Source: Mustelus asterias
Lineage: Eukaryota
Direction: 5' to 3'
Assembly: GCF_964213995.1 (NCBI RefSeq)
Contig: NC_135812.1
Span: 79,608,001 to 79,672,000 of the forward strand
DNA: 64,000 bases
The notes below the pieces were generated by a model. The model had not been told where the DNA came from. It saw only the letters and a list, made by a program, of their open reading frames with translations, and searched no databases. This document shows positions 2,843 to 61,755 of this stretch, in pieces. A program made the translations under genes and the position numbers. The first letter of the stretch is position 1. Every line of letters begins with the position of its first letter.

Positions 2843-5283
2843 GTGTTCAGCGAGCGGGAGAGTCTGGACAGACCGTTATCTCTGGATGAGCTGACAAAGG
2901 CCGTCAAGTACTTTCAGAAGGGTAAAACTCCCAGAAGCGATGGCTTACCGGGTGAGTTTTACTCGGCGTTGTGGGACTTGACAGGCCCGGACCTGCTGGA
3001 TGTGTACGAAAGTATGCTTCTGGAAGGCAGCATGTCAGAATCCATGAGGAAAGGCATCATTACCCTCATCTACAAGCAGAAGGGGGAAAGAGAAGAAATT
3101 AGAAATTGATGACCCCTTTCACTATTGAACGTGGACTACAAAATTTTAGCCAAGGTCATCGCCAACCAGGTCAAGTTTGCTCTGGGGTTGGTGATCCATC
3201 CTGATCAAACCTGTGCTGAACCCAGCAGGAAGATCTCTGATAGCCTCGCGCTACTGAGGGATACGATTGCCTACGTGGAGGACAGGCAAGTGGACACCTG
3301 CCTCATCAGCCTAGACCAGGAGAAGGCGTTTGACAGAATATTGCACAGCTACATGATGGATGTGCTCTCCAAAATGGGCTTTGGGGATGGAATCCGCAAT
3401 TGGATCCAACTGCTCTACACAGATATCAGTAACGCAGTCTCAGTCAAAGGGTGGGAATCAGATAGTTTTCAGATCAGGTCTGGAGTTAGGCAGGGCTGCC
3501 CTCTCTCTTCCGTCCTTTTTGTGTGTTGCATTGAACCCTTTGCCGAGTCCATCAGAAAGGACCCAGGCATTAAAGGGGTTCCCATCCCAGGCAGCGGAGG
3601 CGCGCAGGTCAAAGCCTCCTTCTGCATGGATGACTTGGCTGTCTTCTGCTCAGATCTGTCATCTGTTCACAGGCTCTTCCAAGTCTGTGAGCAGTTCGAG
3701 TTGGCCTCGAGAGCCAAAGTTAACTGGAGCAAGAGCGAAGCTATGTTCTTTGGGAACTGGGCTGACAGATCCTTTGTCCCCTTCACCGTCAGGGCAGACT
3801 ACCTCAAGGTGCTGGGGATATGGTTTGGAGCGGCAGGGGCATGGGCCAAAAACTGGGAAGAGTGCATCGTCAAAGTAAGGCAGAAATTGGGCTTGTGGGA
3901 GCAACGCTCCCTCTCTATCACCGGAAAAAACCTGGTCATCCGGTGCGAGGTACTGTCCGTGTTGTTGTATGTGGCGTAGGTCTGGTCCATCCCCAAATCC
4001 TGCGCAGCAGCAGTGACCCAGGCCATCTTCAAATTTATCTGGAGATCAAAGATGGATTGTGTCCGGAGGAAAGCGATGCACAAATCTCTGGAGAATGGAG
4101 GGAAAAATGTTCCCAACGCCACCCTCATCCTGATGGCCACCTTTGTGTGCAGCTGCATCAAGCTGTGTGTAGATCCTTGGTACGCTAACACCAAGTGCCA
4201 CTACTTTTTGAGGTTCTACCTGTCCCAAATGTTACGGAAGATGGGTCTGGCCACACTGCCACGGAACGCTCCAAGGAGTTGGACCGTACCGCAGCACCTG
4301 TCCTTCGTGGAGAAATTTTTACGGAAACACACCTTTGACCACATGGCGATCAAATAGTGGTCAGCATGTAATGTCCTCGAGGCCCTGAGAGAAAAGGAGA
4401 TGGTGGATCCTGTCGGATGGTTCCCTGAGCAGACTGTCAGTGTCATCTGGCAGAATGCCTCATCACCAGAACTCACAAACAAGCACAAAAACCTGGCTTG
4501 GTTGGTGGTGTAAAGGGCACTTCCCGTCAGATCCTTCATGCACGCTTGAGGTCTCAACACTATCGCACGCTGCCCGCGAAGTAGCTGCGGGGGTGATGAG
4601 ACAGTCGCACACCTCCTTGTGGAATGTGCCTTTGCAAAGAAGGTCTGGAGTGAGATGCAGTGTTATTTCTCAAGCTTCATTCCCAGCAGCTCGGTGACGC
4701 AGGACTCTGTGCTCTACGGGCTGTTTCCAGGGACGCACACTGAGACAAATATCAACTGCTGCTGGAGGGTCATCAACTCGGTGAAGGATGCACTTTGGTC
4801 CGCCCGATCTTCCAGTGCAAAGATTTGTCCTCGACCGAGTGTTGCAGACTGGCACATTCCAAGGTCCAGGACTACGTGCTGGGGGATGCTCTCAAGCTTG
4901 GGGCAGCCACCACAAAGGCACAATGGGGAAAGGCCACAGTTTAAAGCCTTTCACCCAAGACAGACCGAGGGCCCAGTAACTGTAGAACACCCTCGGACTG
5001 CGTAACTGTGTGCTAATCTGTAAAAACAACAGCACACAGTGAAATGTGATGAATGTATATAGTTTGAAGGACTGAACTGTAATGAATGTAATGTCTTGTA
5101 AAACTGAGCACTGTAAAGTATCGTACATATGATTGGTCTTTTTTTGCACTGCTTGTAATTATCAGAAATGTTGTTTTGCAATGGTCTATTTCAGAGTATA
5201 TATAGAAACATAGAAACATAGAAAACTACAGCACAAAAACAGGCCCTTATATGAATAAAGTATATTTTTGAAATTTAAAAAAA
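2843..5283 (+). mobile_element. Tx1-type (L1 clade) LINE, 5'-truncated, disrupted ORF2
   Basis: NVDYKILAK, DQEKAFD, GVRQGCPLS, (Y>C)MDD and C-terminal CCHC (CPRSSCGGDETVAHLLVEC); in-frame stops; 3' end AATAAAGTATATTTTTG plus A tract. Confidence 0.95.
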
Positions 5284-5584
5284 TTGGCTAAGATCAAATA
5301 TAGTATCGGCAGTCCTGCACTTGATAGAAGTCAATGAGGTTACACTGAGGCTTCATTAGAAGCAATTTTTAAAAACAGCATCTCGGCCTTTTGGCTAAGA
5401 TGCAAATGAGATCAAGCACTGGAGGGGGTGCAATGCCCGCTTCTAACAGCTTGGATCATGTAGATCAAGCCCAGGACAGGAAGCGGCCAGCTTGTCTTGT
5501 CAGCTTGGATCTGTAATGTCTCACTGGTTGAGACTTTGAATTGGACTTTGATTGGATTGAGATTGGATATAGGTTAAAAGAAAA
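5284..5584 (+). mobile_element. U2 snRNA-headed SINE-like element, copy 1 (starts at U2 nt 17)
   Basis: 5284-5307 matches U2 nt 17-40 with 2 mismatches; 5381-5401 matches U2 nt 7-27; body colinear with 46992-47620; GATTG-type repeats and A-rich end. Confidence 0.9.
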
Positions 5585-8063
5585 TTGTCATCTGGGGGGG
5601 AGGCAGTTGCTCACAGGCCTCACTTTCCCTTCATGCCAGGCTGTCCCTTGGTTTAAAGGGGTCTGGCAGCTGGCATGCAGGCAACACTCCCATGTCCCCT
5701 TTGCTGATTGGAGCCAAGTTCTTAACCTTTTGGAAATGTTGGCCCTATTCCTTTAAGGGGCTGCACCTTTTACTTTGTCCCACATTTTATTTGATTTAAT
5801 TTAACTTCTTTATCCAAAAGAGTTGGAAGCATTGATTCCAAGCATAGAACTCCAATGCTCATACTAACATCTGTTAAGAGTGATCACACTGATGTGGACC
5901 CCAATATCCCGTTCAAGGTCATGACGTGAAGCACCCTTGAGGACCCCGTGAGGTTCAAACACTGACCCAATGCATGCACTCAATTGCACTATTCCCTAAT
6001 GCTTGGGTTGGGTGGGGGGTGGGGGAGGGGGGACATGGTCGAGGGTGTTAGTCACCACTGAGATTGTCTAGCTTCATTCGGGTGAGATGGACAACTGTGG
6101 GGAAGTGGGTATTGTGTGAAAGGGGAGGGAGTGAGGCTTAGTGGAGAGGTGCTCACAGAGAGGGAAGCACATGGGTGGATGTCTCAGAAGTGTGGGGAGG
6201 GCTGAGAATACTGTCAGGAATATTCATCACTCACTTTGATGTTCTCTTCCTTCAGTTTTCAATTCTGGACAATCATGGAACCAGTCGAGTTGACAATTCT
6301 ATTGATTGCGATCGACCAATAACAGTGACATTGACGTGCTGCTGCACACGGCCAGCACCAGCGCCCTGCAGAGGAGGGGGAGGCTGGGCCTGTTGCTCTT
6401 CCAGGAGAAGAACCATAGATGGTGGAGCCTCGGAGGTGACACAACTGGCAAAGGTCCTTCTAACATTGAACATCCTGCATCTAGATATTAGAGCTGCAGT
6501 GCCGGAGAAGACTGCATCTGTCCCGGGGGATGGTGGACCACCTTTGCCAAGTTATGCAAAGTTGACATCACATGGACTGGGAGGTCAGCAATTGTCTGTT
6601 TCCCTTAAAGTTGCTGCCGCTCTGAATTTCTATGCCAGTGGCTCATTACAGTGTAGCATGGGCGACCTGTGGGCCTTTCCCAGGCAGCCGCACACAGGTA
6701 TTTGCCAGGGCCCATGTGGACACCAACTTGGACCAGGACTAGTTTCACCCAATTAGCAGGCATGCCCTAGGTGCAGGATGTCATTGACTGCCACCCATGT
6801 GGCTCTGCGGTCTCCAGGGTGGCATGGGGCCACGAGGGATACCAGTCTCTCAATGTCTAAAACGCCATGTGCATCATGCAGGTCTGTACCCATTTCCTGG
6901 GGAGCATCCATGGCAGGTATGTCTTGGGACACTTGCGGATCCCAGCCATCTTTGAGGGAGAGCAGCGACTGAGGGATGGCTCCTCGGGGACAGGACATAC
7001 TCCCTCATAAGGTAGCTGATGACGCCAGTGCGGAGGACACAAATGCCCGCTGAGGTTTGCTGTAACGCAGTTCATGAATCAACGCGAGTGCTGGTTAGCA
7101 GGCAATTGGACTGCTGAAGATTTGGTTCTGGTGCCTGGTCCCCTGTGATACAGCTCCCAGAGAGCTTCCCGCATTATTGTGGTCTGCTGTGCCTTCCTTA
7201 ACTTGGCGCTGCCGTAGGAAGACCAGCTGGACAGGAGGAGATGGGGGACCCATCTTATAGTAAACTTTTCTTCTTACAGAAAACACATGTGCCCAAAAGC
7301 TCTGGTCCCACCTTCTGCGGTAATCATAGTGAGCGGGACGGATGATTGAAAGGTCAATTGAACTCGGGCAGGAAATTCTGGTCCCTGGGTGGGTGGGAAT
7401 AGAGATTTCCGCCCATGCATTTCAATGCAGTGACTTTTAAAAGATATGGCAGAATGAGAGCTTCATTACCTGATGCATAATGCCAAGGGGAATTAGAACA
7501 TGCAAAATAGAAAGAGATCATATGGCATAAGATTGCTACACCAGCTATTGAAAGGAGATATTCCATTAAGCTCACTCTCTGACATTTTCACCATCACTCT
7601 CTAACTTCTTATTTTTCAAGTATTTATCGGATTCTCTTTAGAAGTTACTATTAAATCTGCTTTGACATCCTTTCAGGCAATTCATTCCAAATCTCATCAA
7701 GTCCCCATGTTAAATAATTTCTCCTCATCTCCTTTTGCTTCTTTTCCCAATTACCTCAAATCAATATCCTTTGGTTACTGAATCTCCTGTCAGTGTAAAG
7801 TTTCTCTATTTACTATATCAAATTTTCGATTTGGTTTGATTTATTATTGTCACTAATGCATGTGACAATAATAAATCAAATCAAATCAAAAATTCCTTCA
7901 TGATTTTGAACGCATCTGTTAAATTCTTTTCACTTGACTTGTGAACAGTTAGCGTTCTTGACAATGAGCAGCTGACTCTCTGTTTTTTAGTCAACAGTAT
8001 CAAGGTCTTAATCCAATTCAAGGATTCAAATTCAGTCTTTGTGCCCGAAATTCTACAGCGCCT

Positions 8064-25301: not shown

Positions 25302-26168
25302 AACATGTTTCTTTGTCAGAAGGAACTTATAGAAATGCATGCAAATGTCTTATTATGTGACGATGTGATAACTTTAATGTAAGTTTGATTAAAAACAGAA
25401 TGATGAAAGAAAACATTTTGGTGTTAAAATAATTGCAATTTACATACAAAAAGTAGAAGTTTAAAAAGTCAAAATTGATTTATTAGTCACAAGTAAGGCT
25501 TACATTAACACTGCAATTAAGTCACTGTAAAATTCCCGTGACTTTTACTGCGAATTACTGTGAAAATATATAATTACAGATCTTGCCAGAACAGCATTGA
25601 ACTAATGGAGATCTTTGAGCGGTGAAGAGGTTTAAACATAGATCTTGATTCAACAAACCTGGCGGGCCTTTTAGCTTCTTAAAAAATTTGAATTACATTC
25701 AGCGTGTAAAAGCTTTCATTATCACAAAAACACTCTTTCAAAACTGCATCTCTACTGGAGTGCTGCAGCTGAAATTAATCAGAGCTTTTAATAGCCTTAT
25801 CTATTCTCAATCGGATAATAGTCATTTCAATAGGATCAAAAAAATTGATTCACATTTCTTTTGTTTCAAATTTTTAATCCAAAAATATTTTCAAAGTGAT
25901 TTCGATCCCAGTTTTGACAATTTTTGGAAAGTACAAATGAACATTAATATGTGCGTTCCTATAGATTAATTGATGAGTCGCTTCAAAATAGTTTTGATTG
26001 GCTTCACAAATTCCTTCAATGCAATGAATACTTTCTTAAATCCTACTGTACATTTTATGTCTGCAACTATGTACCTGACCATCATCTTAGACACAATGAT
26101 GGGTTTAATTGACCATATGTAACTTGCAGAAATTTTCAGCAAATTGACAATTCAAGCAACAGCTAAAT

Positions 26169-26342
26169 TTTTTTTTTATACTTTTCCAATTCAATCAAAT
26201 CAAATCCAATTCAGAGTCTCAACAAGTTGAGACATTTCAGATCCAGGCTGACAAGACAGGACGGGAGACCAAAACCACCCTGTCCTGGGCCTGATCTACA
26301 TGAGTCAAGCTGATTGGAGAAGGGGGAGGATCCGCCTCCAAG
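26169..26342 (-). mobile_element. U2-headed SINE-like element, copy 2 (5'-truncated)
   Basis: 3' half colinear with the other copies; poly(A); direct repeat CAAGCAACAGCTAAAT at 26153-26168 and 26339-26354. Confidence 0.9.
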
Positions 26343-26505
26343 CAACAGCTAAATGCTTCAGAAAATTCAGGGATTATACGAAAAACAACAAAAAGAATTG
26401 TTGACACAATTTTTTAGACAAATGCTAAAGCACGTTTACATCTTCCTCACCTAATATCGGGTTATGAATTCAGGCCAAACACCGATTGCAGATTATGGTT
26501 AAAAA

Positions 26506-46665: not shown

Positions 46666-46991
46666 CTTTTAAAAAAACATCTGGAAGCAAAATTGCTACA
46701 GAATTTTTGCCAGTCCTTTACAGGAATTGGTCAGTGAAGGATTTCATCATTTAACATCATTTTACCGGTTAAAAAGGGTGACAATTGCTTTGGATGAAAA
46801 GTACAAATCATGACATTTGCAGTTACATGTAACAATTGAAAACGTATGTTTTAACACTTAGTAATGCTGTTTTATCCTGCAAGAGAAAATATGTTGTAGG
46901 TTAGCCTGTTCTTTCACACCAGAAATCTACTTCTCATCAACTCCACCCTTGCAGAAGCTAAGGTAATCTGTGTCTAATGCAACTGGGTAAA

Positions 46992-47620
46992 ATCGCTTCT
47001 CGGCCTTTTGGCTAAGATCAAGTGTAGTATCGACATGCTGTACTTGGTTGAAGTCATTAGGTTACATTTTAGCTTCATTTGAAGCTATTTTTAAGAGTGG
47101 CATCTCGGCCTTTTGGCTAAGATGCAAATGAGATCAAGCCTTGGAGGAGGTGCAATGCCTACTCCAATCAGCTAGGATCATGTGGTTCCCAAACCTTTTT
47201 CACTGGGCCGCACTTTCGGAATAAAAATTTGCTCGCGCCACACTGAATTTTTTATTGATAAGAAATACATTCAAAAACAAAAATAAACAACTAGCAGTGC
47301 TTGATTCATAACATAGAACACAACTACTTTATAATATGATCATGGGACATCGTCCTCAGCATCACTTGATGCTCTTGCTCTCACTTTGGAAAAATATCTA
47401 TCCATGTTTCAATGTTTCTTTGATTGTCCTTGAATCTTCCCACCACACTTGCCATCCCCCTCACCGCACCAGTGTGGCACGCCGCACCCTTTGGGAACCA
47501 CTGATGTAGATCAAGCCCAAGACAGGAGGTGCGAGCCCTGTCTTGTCAGCTTGGATCGGGAATGTCTCACTTGTTGAGACTCTGAATTGGACTTGATTTG
47601 ATTGAATTGGATTTTTTAAA
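46992..47620 (+). mobile_element. U2 snRNA-headed SINE-like element, copy 3 (full length, interrupted by a hAT MITE)
   Basis: 46992-47031 equals U2 nt 1-40; 47103-47123 equals U2 nt 7-27; TSD AACTGGGTA at 46981-46989 and 47621-47629. Confidence 0.92.
47182..47503. mobile_element. hAT (Charlie-type) MITE
   Basis: GTGGTTCCCAAA...TTTGGGAACCACTG TIRs; right flank ATGTAGAT; left junction partly deleted. Confidence 0.85.
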
Positions 47621-47916
47621 AACTGGGTATATTCAATAGTAAAATTCCACCTACTTAAAACGAAGGAATTGAACTCCCAGGGCAAGACTGATATTGGCTG
47701 GAAATGAGAGTGTTATTTATAAATGTATGTAAATAAATATTTGCACAGTTATGATTTAGGCAGGATCATCAGAATAGACAATTTTGTTAATATGTACATA
47801 GGCTGGAATTAGAGTCATTGGGAGGAATGTAGCAGGCGAGGGTTGGACCATGGAAAGGTCCTTTGACCTCGGGTGGGAATTTCTGGTTTTGGGGCGAGCG
47901 TGGCCCATTGAGTCAT

Positions 47917-51949: not shown

Positions 51950-54900
51950 CCCCCGCCCCCTCCGGAGTCCTACAATCTCCTGCAACAGGGGGAGTCAGAA
52001 GGTGTAGCCACAGCTGCAGTCTCCTGGGTGGAAGGCCTCAGCACAGGCTCAGCCCTTCCTCTTCTTTCGGAGTTCCTGTGGGCCCCTGGGTCGCTATGTG
52101 GGGACAGTGATACTTCTGCCGTGAGCTCCAGAAGCTCCAGCATCATCTGGCCCTGCCAGTCCTGGAGGACCACTTGCATTCTAGCCATGGTGGTTGAGCC
52201 CTCTGCGACGGCCACATGAGTAGGAGGACCACCTGTCAATGGCAGCAGCAAGTGACATCTGAGACAGGGCCACGCTTTGCAGGTTACACTGGACCGCATT
52301 CTCAAAGGCTGCTGCCGTAGCCTGCTGTGTCTTGGCGCTGTCCAACTGGGTCTCCTACAAGTTCTCCAACCTCTCAGCCATGGGCCACAGAATCTCGAGA
52401 AGCCTATTGAGGCCCTCAGCTGTGGCCCGCTGTAACTTGGCCATTGCTTGGACCCTGCCACTCATGGTGAAGATTTCCTGCCCCAGGCTTTCCATTGCAG
52501 ATGCCACCTTTGCAGTGTTGGCCTGGGAACCACGCAAGACAGGCAATAGCTGGTCCACTTTGGGACTCCTCCCAGCAGCCTCACAGTTGGTCCAGTGTGA
52601 CCGTCAGCCTCTCCTGCATTCCCTGGCTCTATTGCAGCATCTCCAGCAGCTGAAGGAGAGGTGATCGCAGAGGCCCAGCATGTAGCCTGGGGCCAGCTGA
52701 GTCCTCGCCTCCGGCAGGTCCCCACATGCCAGAGGCCTCGGATGTTTCCTTCTCCACCTGATGTACATCAGCAGATGTGTCGTGCGCACCAGAGAGTGAC
52801 CCAGATGCCGCGCCACTAACTTGACCCACTGATGTGAGAGTCTCTGGGATGGTGAATTGCGAGGTGGAAGCTGACGTGAAACTGGTGCCGGCCTCGGAGC
52901 TCCCTTCATCAGCTTCCTCCGAGGAGCCTTCCGAGCTGTCAGGGGCAGGATGGGCGGGAGCAGCAGTGGGGGCCGCGATGCCAGATGGCCCAGGTGTGTC
53001 GGATCCCTTCCTGCAACTTTGGACACAAGGTTAATTGCAAGGGAGGGAGAGGAATCTGGGCTGCATGCAACTTACTTGACATTTCTCTATAAAGTGAAGG
53101 ATTGGCAGTTGCTCACTCCAATGCTCCAGCCTGACCATGGTGTCGCTTATCATCTGCATTCCCTCCTCTCCCGCAAGCTCCAGTGCCCGCTCCTCAAAGC
53201 GGGTGAGGACTCGGATGTCAGGCTCATCACCCCCTGTCTTTGCCCTCTCCTGGCGGTTATGGGCATTCTTCTCCTGTGGGGACAGAAGGAGCCTTGAAAA
53301 ATCTGATGGCACGAGTCCTGCAGGGTATCAGGGGGTGGCCCTCCGAGGGTAAGGGTTGTGATACTCTTGGGGGAGAGGAGGGAGGTGCTTGGGGGTCAGG
53401 GCCTGGAACATAAGAACATAAGAAATAGAAGCAGGAGTAGGCCATCTGGCCCCTCAAGCCTGCTCCGCCATTCAATAAGATCATGGCTGATCTGATAGTG
53501 GGTTCAGTTCCACTTACCCGCCCGCTCCCCATAACCCTTAATTCCCTTATTGGCTAAAAACCTATCTATCTGTGACTTAAACGCATTTAATGAGGTAGCC
53601 TCTACCGCTTCATTGGGCAGAGAATTCCAAAGATTCACTACCCTCTGGGAGAAGAAGTTCCTCCTCAACTCTGTTCTAAATTGACTCTCCCGTATTTTGA
53701 GGCTATGCCCCATAGTTCTTGTTTCCATTGTAAGTGGAAACAATCTCAATGTTTCTACCCTGTCTAGCCCCTTCATTATCTTATATGTCTCTATAAGATC
53801 TCCCCTCAACCTTCTAAACTCCAAAGAGTACAGGCCCAGTCTGCTCAATCTTTCCTCATAAGCTAACCCCCTCATCTCTGGAATCAACCTGGTGAACCTT
53901 CTCTGCATCCCTTCCAAAGCCAATACATCCTTTCTTAAATAAGGGGACCAAAACTGTACACAGTACTCTAGATGCGGCCTCACCAGTACCCTGTACAGTT
54001 GCAGCATGACCTCCCTGCTTCTATACTCCATCCCTCTCGCGATAAAGCTCAACATTCCATTTGCCTTCTTGACCACCTGCTGCACCTGCAAACTGTGTTT
54101 TTGTGATTCATGCACAAGGACCCCCAGGTCCCTCTGCACAGCAGCATGTTGTGATTTTTCACCGTTTAAATAACAGTCCCTTTTCCTATTATTCCTTCCA
54201 AGGTGGATAACCTCACACTTACCAATGTTATACTCCATCTGCCAGATCCTCGCCCACTCACTGAGCCTATCCAAATCTCTCTGCAGACTCTCTGTGTCTT
54301 CCACGCAATTTGCTTTCCCACCCATCATAGTGTCACCCGCAAACTTTGTTACCCTACAGATCATCTATGTATATGGTAAATAGTTGAGGCCCCAGCACCG
54401 ATCCCTGCGGCACGCCACTAGTCACGGATTGCCAACCAGAAAAGCACCCATTTATACCTACTCTCTGTTTTCTGTTAGACAGCCAATCTTCAATCCACGC
54501 TAACACTTTACCCCCAACTCCGTGCACCTTTATCTTTTGCAGTAACCTTTTGTGAGGCACCTTATCGAAAGCCTTCTGGAAATCCAAATACAATACATCC
54601 ACCGGTTCCCCCCTGTCAACCGCACTCGTTACCTCCTCAAAAAACTCCAGTAAATTAGTCAAACATGACTTTCCCTTCCTGAATCCATGCTGCATCTGCT
54701 TGATTGAACCATTCTTATCCAGGTGTCCTGCTATTTCTTCCTTTGTGATAGATTCCAGCATTTTCCCAACTACGGATGTTAAGCTAACCGGCCTGTAATT
54801 ACCTGCCTTTTGTCTGCCTCCTTTTTTAAACAGTGGCGTTACATTAGCTGTTTTCCAATCAGCTGGCACCTCCCCAGAGTCCAGTGAATTTTGATAGATT

Positions 54901-57804
54901 ACAACTAATGCATTTGCTATTGCCTCTGCCGTTTCTTTTAGTACCCTGGGATGCATTCCATCCGGACCATGGGACTTTAGTCCCAGTAGCCTACCCAGCA
55001 CCAACTCCTTAGTAATAGTGATCGTTTTAAGGTCCTCACCCCCTACAGTCCCATGACCGTCAATTATTGGTAAGCTATTTGTGTCCTCCACTGTGAAGAC
55101 CGACACAAAAAACTTGTTTAAGGCCTCAGCCATTTCCTCGTTTCCCATTATTAAATCCCCCTTCTCATCTTCTAAGGGACCAACATTTACTTTAGCCAAT
55201 CTTTTCCTTTTTATATATTTGTAAAAACTCTTACTAATAGTTTTTATATTTTGGGCTAGTTTACTTTCATACTCTATCTTTCCTTTCTTTATTGCTTTCT
55301 TCGTAGTTCTTTGTTGCTTTTTAATGCCTTCCCAATCCTCTAATTCCCCACTAATCTTGGCCACTCTGAATGCATTGGTTTTTAATTTGATACTTTCCTT
55401 TATCTCCTTAGTTATCCATGGCTGGTTATTCCTTTTATTACATCCCTTCTTTTTCACTGGAATATATTTTTCCTGAGTACTGAGAAAAATCTCCTTACAA
55501 ATCCTCCACTGTTCCTCAACTGTCCCACCAATTAGTCTGTGTTCCCAGTCTACATTAGCCAACTCTGCCCTCATCCTATTGTAATCCCCCTTGTTCAAGC
55601 AGAGGACATTGGTTTGGAACCCTACTTTCTCACCCTCCATCTGTATTAGAAATTCAACCATATTGTGATCACTCATTCCAAGAGGATCCCTCACAAGGAG
55701 ATCATTTATTTTACCTGTCTCATTACACAGGACCAGATCCAGGATAGCTTGCTCCCTCGTAGGTTCTGTAACATACTGTTCGAGGAAACTATCGCAACAG
55801 CATTCTAAGAACTCTTCCTCAAGTGCACCGCGTCCGACTTGAGTTGACCAATCAATGTGGAGGTTAAAATCCCCCATGATTACTGCTGTTCCATTTCTAC
55901 ATGCATCTGTTATTTGTTTGTTTATGGCCTGCCCCACCTCGAAGTTATTATTTGGGGGCCTATAGACTACGCCCACCAGTGACTTTTTCCCCTTACTATT
56001 CCTTATCTCCACCCACATTGATTCCACATTTTGCTCCTTAGAGCCTATATCGTCTCTCACTACCGCCCTGATGTTATCCTTAATTAACAGAGCTACCCCA
56101 CCTCCTTTTCCTTCCTGTCTATCCTTCCGAATTGTCTGATACCCGCGGATATTTAGTTCCCAGTCCTGGTCACTCTGCAACCACGTTTCTGTAATGGCCA
56201 CTAGATCATACCCATTTGTACTAATTTGTGCCGTCAACTCATTCACTTTGTTTCGAATGTTATGTACATTCAGGTAAAGTGTCTTTATGTTAGTCTTTCT
56301 TACCTGGACTCGATTTGTTAGTGCGTTCCTTTGTTTGCATGCTCTGTCCCTTCCTGTCACAGACTGGTTATTCTTCCCCAGACCATCTCCTTGCACTGTG
56401 TTGACCACCTCCTTTCTCATGCTTGTCACCTTTTTTACTCTGCCTGAGGTTAGATTCCTGCCATCTTCTATACTCTCTGTTCTATTACGTGGTCTGGAAA
56501 CTTTATTAACCTCTCCTGAGCTCTCATCTCCTTTAACTAATTGAAAGTCCTCATCATTAACCTGCACTCCTACCCTCTCCTTTACCTTTGATTTTCTAAT
56601 TCTCCATACCACTGACCCCTCCCCCTCACTATTTAGTTTAAAGCCCTATCTACAGCCCTAGTTATACGATTCGCCAGGACTCTGGTCCCAGCACGATTCA
56701 GACGAAGACCATCCCGTCGGTACAGGTCCCATCTTCCCCAATACTGGTGCCAATGTCCCATGAATTCAAACCCCTTCCTCCCACACCAATCTTTGAGCCA
56801 CGCATTTACCTCCTTAATCTTATTGACCCTGTGCCAATTCGCTCGTGGCTCAGGTAGTAGTCCAGAGATTATTACCTTTTTTGTTCTGATTTTCAATTTA
56901 GATCCTAACTTTTCATATTCCCTTAGCAGAACCTCAGTTCCTGTTCTTCCTATATCGTTGGCACCTATGTGGACCACGACAACTGGATCTTTACCCTCCC
57001 ACTCCAAGTTCCTCTGCAGCCCCAGATGAGATATCCTGAACCCGAGCACCAGGCAGGCAACACAACCTTCAGGATTCTCGATCCTGGTCACAGAGAACAG
57101 TGTCAATGCCCCTAACTATACTATCCCCAGTTACGACTACATTTCTTTCTTCTCCCCCCACTTGAACGGCTCCCTGTACCACGGTGCTGTGGTCAGTTTG
57201 CTCATCCTCCCTGCATTCCCTGTTCCCGTCCACACAGGTAGCAAGAATCTCGAACCTGTTGGACAAGTTCAGGGACTGAGGCTCCGGTAACACTACTCCC
57301 TGGATCCCTCTACCTGCCTCACCCGCAGCCACACCCTCTTCTCCCTGACCACTGTCTGAATTCAAGGTAGTTTTTCTAAGGGGTGTGACTGCTTCCTGAA
57401 ACACAGCGTCCAGGTAACTCTCCCCCTCCCTGATATGTCGCAGTGTCTGGAGCTCACAATCCAGCTCATCCACACTGAGCCGGAGTTCCTCAAGCAACCA
57501 ACACTTACTGCAGACATGCTCACTTGGAACAACAGTGGGGTCCACCAGCTCCCACATCATGCAGAAACAACACATCACATGACCCTCGCAGGGTGCTGGG
57601 AGTGGGGGGATCTGGGGGTCATTTAGGGGAAAGATGCTAGATGAGGTGAAACGCTCCCCCTTGCTGCCCAGATTAGCTTATTTGTTTATGGCACTGCTTT
57701 CCAGTTCTCCTGGCCAGTGCCTTGGCACTAATGCATGTTGCCACAACCTCCCAGGCTGTGTTTCCATCGCTTCCCCTGGAACGACATCCTGTTGGGGTGA
57801 AGAG
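51950..57804 (-). pseudogene. Harbinger Myb/SANT-like partner gene, convergent, intron-containing
   Basis: Exon near 57665-57804 reads AWEVVATCISAKALARRTGKQCHK; the next exon reads EKNAHNRQERAKTGG...LTRFEERALEL (about 53075-53273), followed by a low-complexity/coiled-coil region. Confidence 0.8.
53407..57588 (-). mobile_element. Near full-length CR1 LINE (ORF1 zinc finger + SGNH esterase, ORF2 EN-RT)
   Basis: ORF1 CxxC...CxxC, GDSIVRG, HIGAND; ORF2 AITETW, GDFN, SDH, GVPQGSVLGP, YIDD; frameshifts near 57090 and 54360; (TTCTTATG)n tail. Confidence 0.97.
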
Positions 57805-60172: not shown

Positions 60173-61224
60173 TGTTGAAGTGGAAATTTTCCTGCTTCTT
60201 GACTGTGATAGAAAAACTCAACAAAGTTCGTTCCAACAAAACAACTAGTATTTATTTACGAAAGACTGCATGCAGTTTTGGCTGAAAACTTGAGTTCAGA
60301 GAGCAGTTGGTACAACTTGCTAATTCCTCCTCAAGTCCGCCATTACACAAAGAATCAGTTCGGTATTTATACATAATCATTATCAGTTTGCGTGACCAGA
60401 GCATATTCAGGAATTCGATTAGTAATAGAATCATAAGCAATGCCATTAATCATGTCATAACTTGCTGACCTCCTAGAACATTCATACCCTTATCTTGTCC
60501 TTTGATGGAACAGAAAAAGGTCGGTGACTCCTTCATCCCTGACCTTATCTTGTCTTATTTACTCATACAGTCTTAAAGTTATGCGGAGTCAGCCTTGCTT
60601 ATATTGTACCAAATAGCTGACCAATTTTCCCATCATGCTATTCCTTAGTTCATACAACTTCACATTCCCTCCTTTTGTCATATCATGACAACTAATTAAA
60701 TAGGGATATCCATAACCCAATTAAAAGTGCATTTATACAAGCAACCAAGCAATCCTATCCCCAATAGCAGTAGTAGTAGTAACATGAAGGCCTTAAAGAT
60801 CCAATCGAATAATCCGTGACCCAGCCATCCTAACCAACCCGCTGGGTCATAATCATGAAATTCACAGCTAATCTCTTGAATTTGATCAGCCTGTCTCTTA
60901 ATATGGTCGGCCAGGTTGGTGATATTTTCAGAGGCATCTGGGATATAAGTACCACATTCCTGACCTACAATGGCGCACGTTCCTCCCTGCGAGGCTAACA
61001 GATAATCCAAAGCCATTCGATTTTGTACTGCCACGGTCCGGACAGCCACCAGCTCAGCCGAGACCTCGGCCAGTGCCTGTCCAGTTGCCCTGGCATTTTC
61101 CGCCGTTATTACGTTTGCCAGTTGTTCCAATGCTGAGGTCATAAGAATCAGTTTGTTGGCTGCCCTGCCCCTTCCATGTAGTGGAAAGGCCATCATGCTA
61201 TTCCTTAGTTCATACAACTTCACA
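60173..61224 (-). mobile_element. env: Internally deleted endogenous retrovirus (35 bp of 5' LTR, env TM, PPT, 3' LTR)
   Basis: ISD QNRMALDYLLASQGG, CAIVGQECG (CX6CC variant), TM anchor; PPT AAAAGGAGGGAA; LTR 60173-60664 TGTGAAG...CTTCAACA; 61190-61224 duplicates 60630-60664. Confidence 0.92.
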
Positions 61225-61755
61225 ACTTCTGGTCGCCTCATTACAGGAAGGATGTAGAAATTATTGAAAGGGTGCAGAGAAGATTTACAAGGATGTTGCC
61301 TGGATTGGGTGGCATGCCTTATGAGGATAGGTTGAGGGAGCTCGGTCTTTTCTCCTTGGAGAGACGAAGGATGAGAGGTGACCTGATGGAGGTGTACAAG
61401 ATGTTGAGAGGTATAGATCGGGTGGATTCTCAGAGGCTTTTTCCCAGGGCTGAAGTGGCTGCTACAAGAGGACACAGGTTTAAGGTGCTGGGGAGTAGGT
61501 ACAGAGGAGATATCAGGGGTACGTTTTTCACTCAGAGGGTGGTGGGTGAGTGGAATCGGCTGCCGTCAATGGTGGTGGAGGCAAACTCGATAGGGTCTTT
61601 TAAGAGACTTCTGGATGAGTACATGGGACTTAATAGGATTGAGGGTTATAGGTCAGCCTATATATAGGCCTAGGTAGGTGGGGACATGACCGGCGCAACT
61701 TGTGGGCCGAAGGGCCTGTTTGTGCTGTAGTTTTTCTATGTTCTATGTTCTATGA
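61225..61755 (+). mobile_element. CR1 LINE 3' fragment (young)
   Basis: ORF 61272-61667 and (TTCTATG)n tail. Confidence 0.95.

Follow-up and report, generated by a model that had tools for sequence, protein, structure and literature searches.

The closest described systems to the element studied here are the crocodilian retroposons SINEU-1 to SINEU-3, the U2-targeting LINEs Keno (Tx1 clade) and Utopia, and the R2 SIDEs. The published description of SINEU leaves open how these elements are transcribed without an internal promoter (PMC4494074). In the account of insertion sites given in PMC4640811, the 3′ flank of Utopia starts at U2 nt 39 and Keno is stated to have an identical one. Annealing to the target has been proposed for R2 elements with retained 28S sequence, and the suggestion there is that 5′ junctions come out uniform because the RNA carries target sequence (PMC3414825, PMC3774820).

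Here we describe a U2-headed element in a 64,000-nt stretch of the Mustelus asterias genome (contig NC_135812.1, positions 79,608,001 to 79,672,000; hereafter the window). We consider it fairly probable that this is a dispersed, non-autonomous retroposon descended from U2, mobilized by a Keno-like Tx1 LINE and able to use a U2 promoter where it has landed at the start of a U2 gene, whose predicted stems are kept, as loops turn over, since folding aids its survival or copying.

The copy at 26 kb (26169..26342, minus strand) is a 5′-truncated member of subfamily Y, the youngest sampled, recognized by its match to the consensus (173/174 bases), its target-site duplication and its A-tail; 39 further genomic copies are 99% identical to it across 26169-26342. 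The duplication is 16 bp long and lies at 26153..26168 on the A-tail side and at 26339..26354 at the truncated 5′ end, where 4 bases overlap the element. The remaining features are all on the minus strand. The module 1 inner hairpin (26314..26341) has a 10-bp stem in subfamily Y, one pair of which is broken in this copy by a private A>C change at 26334, and the 3′ arm of the module 1 outer stem (26300..26310) lost its 5′ partner through truncation. The module 2 hairpin (26239..26297), whose inner stem pairs 26287-26279 with 26260-26252 and whose 3′ arm descends from U2 nt ~44-66, contains the compensated pair G26291-C26246, ancestrally A-U with a G·U intermediate. Next come the terminal hairpin GTCTCA/TGAGAC (26216..26233), descended from the U2 GTCCC/GGGGAC hairpin, which we take to be stem IIb, and a GATT-repeat tail with the A-tail (26169..26215), including an AAAGTAT motif common to the tail of the Keno-like LINE. 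On the minus strand the 26-kb copy reads GATCAGGC at 26296 and GCCTGGATC at 26248, and the 5-kb and 47-kb copies carry GATCAAGC/GCTTGGATC at the corresponding module 2 arms. Every string quoted in the earlier note was found, with its three loops as quoted, the 26-kb copy being read on the minus strand; the two modules it describes are a tandem duplication, and the 26-kb copy is without the module 1 outer 5′ arm. Folded alone, the truncated copy gives a modest z of -2.0 against shuffles, and the opposite strand gives -2.8. A scan of the window with Rfam returned only U2 above threshold and no ribozyme.

The window also contains an older copy, of subfamily Fa, at 5284..5585 (plus strand), with a head that begins at U2 nt 17 and a private G-C pair in module 1 at 5426/5438. 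It adjoins the tail of the 3′ part of a Keno-like Tx1 LINE (2850..5283, plus strand), which is 86% identical over 2850-5197 to the element found in the U2 arrays and has its RT domain at 3113-3979. The subfamily-K-like copy at 47 kb is split in two. Its 5′ part (46992..47179, plus strand) consists of an exact U2 nt 1-40 (46992-47031, identical to U2 1-40 of the genome's own U2 genes), the antisense arm, a second copy of U2 stem I and module 1; its 3′ part (47504..47620, plus strand) holds module 2, the terminal hairpin and the tail, and the target duplication lies at 46981-46989 and 47621-47629. The ~320-bp insert between them (47180..47503) has ~14-bp terminal inverted repeats and lacks a clear target duplication. 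Elsewhere on the minus strand of the window there are LINE remains at 53504-57677, in which a 763-aa frame (54354-56645) contains endonuclease and RT domains, and a frame at 60696-61565 that matches a retroviral envelope family (Pfam TLV_coat, E 1e-8) and overlaps a repeat with further copies at 21.3, 40.6, 42.9 and 53.6 kb.

Descent from U2 extends beyond the head. The body of an older monomer (34 aligned copies) aligns to U2 41-191 with a score of 106.5, the best of 2000 shuffles reaching 76, and U2 nt ~44-170 gave rise to the module 3′ arm, terminal hairpin and tail. TGTAGTA, the branch-point recognition stretch of U2, is the counterpart of the TGCAATG loop in the alignment. Modules 1 and 2 are a tandem duplication, and the dimer gained a second U2 head together with an arm that repeats the head in inverted orientation (local alignment p ~0.003 in two older copies; matched by 144/2000 shuffles in a young copy). 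A perfect palindrome grew within the element. Judged by these alignments, the 3′ body is a U2 sequence that was duplicated and took on a new fold. In 5/5 copies tested U2 nt 11-38 is predicted to pair with the arm (P 0.78-0.84), compared with a mean of 0.27-0.33 for shuffled bodies, the best of which reach a head masking of 0.72-0.85. When the element was examined as a functional variant U2, its internal branch-point recognition bases proved to be GCAATG and not intact, and the head copy is predicted to be paired over nt 33-36 (P 0.70-1.0), which would leave branch-point recognition inaccessible. The monomer has lost the A of the Sm-site-like run, and the dimer has neither an Sm site nor the U2 3′ half.

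Six element queries against the 3.68-Gb genome gave from at least 1180 to at least 3762 initial candidates each, and no dimer-type copy was present in a random sample of 54 ten-kb stretches. The copies studied therefore come from targeted searches and are biased towards the close relatives of each query; from the candidate counts and the random sample together we estimate between thousands and less than ~20,000 copies. A replication search with the 3′ half of subfamily P had no matches, an outcome that carries no weight. We aligned 229 dimer-type copies, removed one misassigned monomer and sorted the other 228 into 16 subfamilies, from O1 to Y, a set that left out fragments and monomers. We ordered this ladder by hand, using similarity and divergence, and its 5′ halves are mosaic; subfamilies H1 and H2 were split partly on the site of the module 2 pair, and the module 2 counts given below are independent of that split. 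Tandem arrays support the hand-set order independently: a younger copy lies 5′ of an older one in 31/33 neighbor pairs of different rank, with 5 ties. Arrays of up to seven copies, with target duplications between them and LINE pieces joining some, were observed at L234, L240, L245, L256, L008, L004 and L297, and at L035 and L075 copies are nested in oppositely oriented ones, which makes long inverted repeats.

Full-length copies are ~300-340 bp long (the monomer ~220 bp), non-coding, and display A-tails, target duplications and 5′ truncations; diagnostic subfamily bodies and identities of up to 99% among dispersed copies identify one family from shared sources rather than a set of separate chimeric retrocopies. 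U2 +1 is reached by 62/229 copies. Dispersed insertion sites show only an A-rich start and no U2-like target motif, and the automatic finder reported target duplications for 146/228 copies, a number that includes false matches to neighboring heads. Related sequence with K/K2-like loops is present in contigs of 3/4 runs from other organisms (X2, X4 and X6; none in X3), indicating that the family is older than the source species.

Within this ladder, the A-U to G-C replacement that the earlier note had seen in module 2 is a real change of the source elements. Over the 228 copies this pair is A-U in 99, G·U in 35, G-C in 93, U·U in 1 and A·C in 0, distributed in ladder order, and the G·U intermediate fills whole subfamilies. 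The proposed compensation in module 1 (AGG/CCT versus GGG/CCC) had to be corrected: the sources went from G·U (54/60 O1-Fb copies) to A-U (163/168 Fc-Y copies), and the G-C state is private to the 5-kb copy (1/18 Fa copies). Turnover of loops on a preserved stem, also claimed from the window alone, extends to all 16 subfamilies. Other pairs changed stepwise as well, the module 2 inner stem from U-A (in the monomer) through U·G to C-G and the terminal hairpin from C-G through U·G to U-A, and sources fixed changes to G·U from both A-U and G-C. The base of module 1 has two pairs that broke and were later repaired. Hand-drawn pairs are broken by ten source changes, of which two lie at this base and became fixed in abundant subfamilies. 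The copies L297:2285-2445 and L314:1840-2157 have in common a transversion pair, A-U to C-G, in the module 1 outer stem.

Source changes were then compared with single-copy (post-insertion) mutations. With hand-drawn helices, 29 source changes are at paired and 73 at unpaired sites, compared with 325 and 177 private ones (p 2e-11), unpaired counts being inflated by loop alignment; pairs are kept or broken in 19/10 source and 124/201 private cases (p 0.005). Circularity was limited by folding each ancestor and classifying the changes automatically, with 41 ambiguous source and 149 ambiguous private changes set aside. This gave 58 paired to 104 unpaired source changes and 487 to 305 private ones (p 2e-9), with p 2e-9 also for pair-breaking versus unpaired changes. 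Source substitutions at predicted paired sites are thus depleted ~3-fold relative to the neutral control, which is post-insertion DNA mutation and may differ in spectrum from source changes arising in reverse transcription. The energy cost per change is +0.06 kcal/mol in sources (n 203) versus +1.06 kcal/mol for private changes (220 sampled of 941; p 1e-5). In the ancestor-folded test the keep/break ratio, 28/30 versus 178/309, is not significant (p 0.087), and transitions at Watson-Crick pairs produced wobble versus A·C states in 16 to 8 source and 135 to 123 private cases, the numbers being small.

RNAalifold, a check named in the earlier note, recovered the same helices from 48 real copies (three nearest each consensus) with a small covariation term of only -2 kcal/mol. 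In the 55-pair structure 94% of cells are paired and two-sided changes occur in 8/55 pairs, compared with 5.3 in shuffles (22/500 reach this value), where neither the shuffle control nor the RNAalifold pair counts are corrected for kinship among copies. The best-kept helices are the module 2 inner stem (99.2% of cells paired) and the terminal hairpin (98.5%). The depletion of source changes at paired sites and the few two-sided pairs together mean that stems are spared and repaired, and that strict covariation is thin. Selection on RNA structure, as claimed from the window, is accordingly supported in part: stems change less than loops among sources, unlike in dead copies, but strict covariation is thin and the keep/break ratio falls short of significance in the ancestor-folded test. 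These comparisons support a structural constraint on the source elements. In 3/6 consensuses the sense strand outdoes shuffles in folding by about the same margin as the antisense strand, and such folding was dropped as proof of RNA-level selection because it does not discriminate.

True U2 genes form arrays on C24, with a second type on C21. Within the arrays lies a LINE that has Tx1-type domains; its 3′ flank starts at U2 nt 39, and its insertion is marked by a ~20-bp duplication of U2 39-58. Its Exo_endo_phos, zf-RVT, RBD_ZCCHC3 and zf-CCHC domains score over the Pfam cut-off, and RVT_1 is slightly below it in the frameshifted L151 copy and above it in the window copy; ORF1 is presumably Tx1-like. 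The domains and the U2 site suggest that this LINE is likely Keno-like. Six retroposon insertions have a 3′ flank that is exactly or nearly exactly the same as that of the LINE (U2 nt 39), and LINE pieces adjoin retroposon copies at 8/172 loci, including the window, and in 0/52 random 10-kb stretches. Given the shared U2 site and this adjacency, the Keno-like LINE likely mobilizes the retroposon. A blastn search at E 1e-5 revealed no likeness between the retroposon body and the LINE beyond the U2 head, the short AAAGTAT tail motif being common to both; an internal-deletion derivative of the LINE, as in the R2 SIDE type, does not describe an element whose 3′ body aligns to U2.

At seven loci, with subfamilies H to Y, the element is exactly at U2 +1 behind U2 upstream DNA: on C24 (L155), C21 (L360), and C14, C1, C8, C6 and C2 (L361-L363, L370, L371). 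LINE copies too start at U2 +1 behind such DNA. Some of the U2 +1 copies continue into intact U2 nt 39 onward, and four of the seven loci are dispersed moved blocks bounded by target duplications. At L370 and L371 the U2 3′ part is absent after the tail, indicating that spacer and element moved together, as would be expected for read-through RNA from a U2 array. We infer from its position that the U2 spacer acts as promoter; these read-through RNAs would have begun upstream of the element. Spacer RNA from U2 arrays apparently served the LINE as a template as well. The array at G000:C24 44.81-44.94 Mb (L151) is an 8035-bp unit of U2 and Keno-like LINE tandemly amplified ~15 times, in which the LINE copy bears another short repeat within its second ORF. 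The second U2 gene type, at G000:C21 28.05-28.08 Mb (L346-L349), has a 448-bp unit with unrelated upstream DNA and is heavily invaded by the LINE at U2 +1. At L156:3660-3920 a deleted LINE fragment has a U1-like piece, which we take to be U1, before its U2 head, comparable to the heads of crocodilian SINEU and Tx1 elements. The LINE 5′ end at L151:1509-1560 folds suggestively on its own U2 head; 9/60 and 16/60 shuffles equal it, and head masking in the LINE itself was set aside as not better than shuffles.

We propose the following route for the retroposon. A diverged whole U2, the monomer, would have duplicated a module and gained a new U2 head and an antisense arm. The LINE would copy the retroposon RNA into nicks all over the genome and, now and then, into U2 between nt 38 and 39, where the head could anneal to the first 39-40 bases of the gene and thereby be renewed. 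Such an insertion in U2 would place the element under the U2 promoter and make it the next source, and sources whose RNA stays folded would win. Folding may hide the U2-derived sequence, including the branch-point recognition bases, and protect the RNA; we judge it a serious prospect, somewhat short of an even one, that the fold is kept chiefly for this masking or protection, which we rank above recognition by a LINE protein.

Such recognition, in which proteins of the Keno-like LINE would read the hairpins as a cis signal near the 3′ end, is a possible scaffold role, as the earlier note had suggested, and a doubtful explanation of the kept stems. It would account for the best-kept positions, namely the module 2 inner stem and terminal hairpin, and for the tail motif and insertion sites common to both elements; however, at blastn E 1e-5 the body has no likeness to the LINE beyond the head, the monomer spread with a different 3′ end, and the apparent copying of U2-array spacer RNA by the LINE suggests a relaxed choice of template. 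The stems could also persist with no selection on structure at all, if loops were hypermutable in reverse transcription and stems were regenerated by fold-back copying or by DNA palindrome correction. Fold-back copying does occur, as the antisense arm (the U2 head copied in inverted form) and the growth of a perfect palindrome show, and the non-significant keep/break ratio (p 0.087) also agrees with this idea. Yet the changes came one side at a time, with 35 copies holding G·U and 0 holding A·C at the module 2 pair, and sources fixed A-U to G·U and G-C to G·U, wobble pairs that templated repair would remove; pure mutational bias is therefore an unlikely cause of the kept stems, and we rank it below LINE recognition.

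The least credible alternative is that the source is a functional host RNA, namely a variant U2 snRNA that purifying selection maintains, with the copies as its retropseudogenes. The whole-U2 ancestry, the U2 +1 copies running into intact U2 nt 39 onward and the related sequence in other organisms would suit it, but subfamilies replace each other, loops turn over completely, the branch-point recognition bases, the Sm-site-like A and the U2 3′ half are altered or lost as described above, and in-register copies are few and of different subfamilies. A structured host ncRNA, the other option raised from the window, is likewise unlikely, given that the copies show target duplications, A-tails and 5′ truncations and fall into a ladder of subfamilies that replace each other.

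Young copies also carry an A-to-G imprint, tallied over those 5′-half sites that do not vary among late subfamilies, the Y copies being picked by their 3′ half. A>G changes number 17/448 against 4/643 T>C in Y copies and 11/441 against 1/642 in P copies; bystander copies, which include some H-type alleles, have 14/503 against 7/712. The excess is absent from the 3′ halves. Most of the A>G changes in Y follow U, the preferred neighbor of ADAR. At invariant sites L040:2025-2333 (plus strand) has 13 A>G and 8 other changes (13/21) and L039:1344-1674 (plus strand) has 6 A>G and 0 other (6/6); L048 and L055 have clustered A>G too, and these four are candidates for a return of ADAR-edited RNA into DNA. 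The hot sites, at UAG, UAC and UAU, are recurrent, and subfamily H has some of them fixed, so that shared alleles or recombination can explain part of the signal. Across all young copies, without subfamily-diagnostic states, the excess is not significant (p 0.34 and 0.45). We regard an origin of the imprint in ADAR editing as an even call. ADAR as driver of the source changes was rejected, the sources having 27 A>G and 22 T>C changes.

A bolder combination of these elements, conceivable and on balance unlikely, would make the retroposon a former U2 gene that parasitizes U2 genes, renewing its head and promoter at nt 38/39, masked from the spliceosome in every U2-derived stretch by selection on RNA folding, with ADAR edits of its long 5′ hairpin written back and polar arrays recording the order. 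If this were true, the polar arrays would document compensatory RNA evolution step by step and with dates; should the A-to-G imprint be that of ADAR, genomic copies record the in-vivo double-strandedness of the RNA. The family is also a rare fossil series of compensatory RNA evolution, in which wobble intermediates occupy whole subfamilies, dead copies serve as neutral control and arrays as clock. The copies at U2 +1 and the moved blocks with U2-array spacer make the transcription of snRNA-headed SINEs testable at named loci.

Our search, outside which Repbase/Dfam entries and subscription journals lay, found no paper on a shark SINEU or on edited genomic SINE copies, and the words "secondary structure", "stem", "hairpin", "shark" and "editing" are absent from the main text of PMC4494074. 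New here are the counts that trace compensation step by step, a corrected reading of one quoted pair and the U2 ancestry of the 3′ body, together with the co-moved array spacer, the polar arrays and the A-to-G imprint. Feature by feature against its published description, the retroposon is SINEU-like, with a probable Tx1 partner. As described in PMC4494074, SINEU-1/-2/-3 likewise have a U2-derived head, an A-tail and target duplications, U2 pieces added repeatedly at the 5′ end, partial duplication, tandem copies with a duplication between them, and a Tx1-type partner with a U2 head, and SINEU-3 is itself a modified U2 gene. Compared by description, our element differs in its host, which is outside the crocodilians, in a 3′ body traceable to U2, in its copies at U2 +1, which bear on the transcription question left open there, and in its insertion site, partner and element here using U2 nt 38/39 whereas the SINEU site lies in a Mariner element (PMC4494074). 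With the U2-targeting LINEs Keno and Utopia, as portrayed in PMC4640811, the partner LINE shares an apurinic-type endonuclease, an RT and a 3′ flank at U2 nt 39; unlike them, the retroposon is non-coding, not derived from a LINE and mostly located outside U2 genes. The R2 SIDEs, in the accounts of PMC3414825 and PMC3774820, are also non-autonomous riders in a multicopy RNA gene that depend on its transcription. They are internal deletions of a LINE with a 5′ ribozyme, whereas the present element descends from its own target gene, begins at +1 of that gene and is dispersed through the genome.
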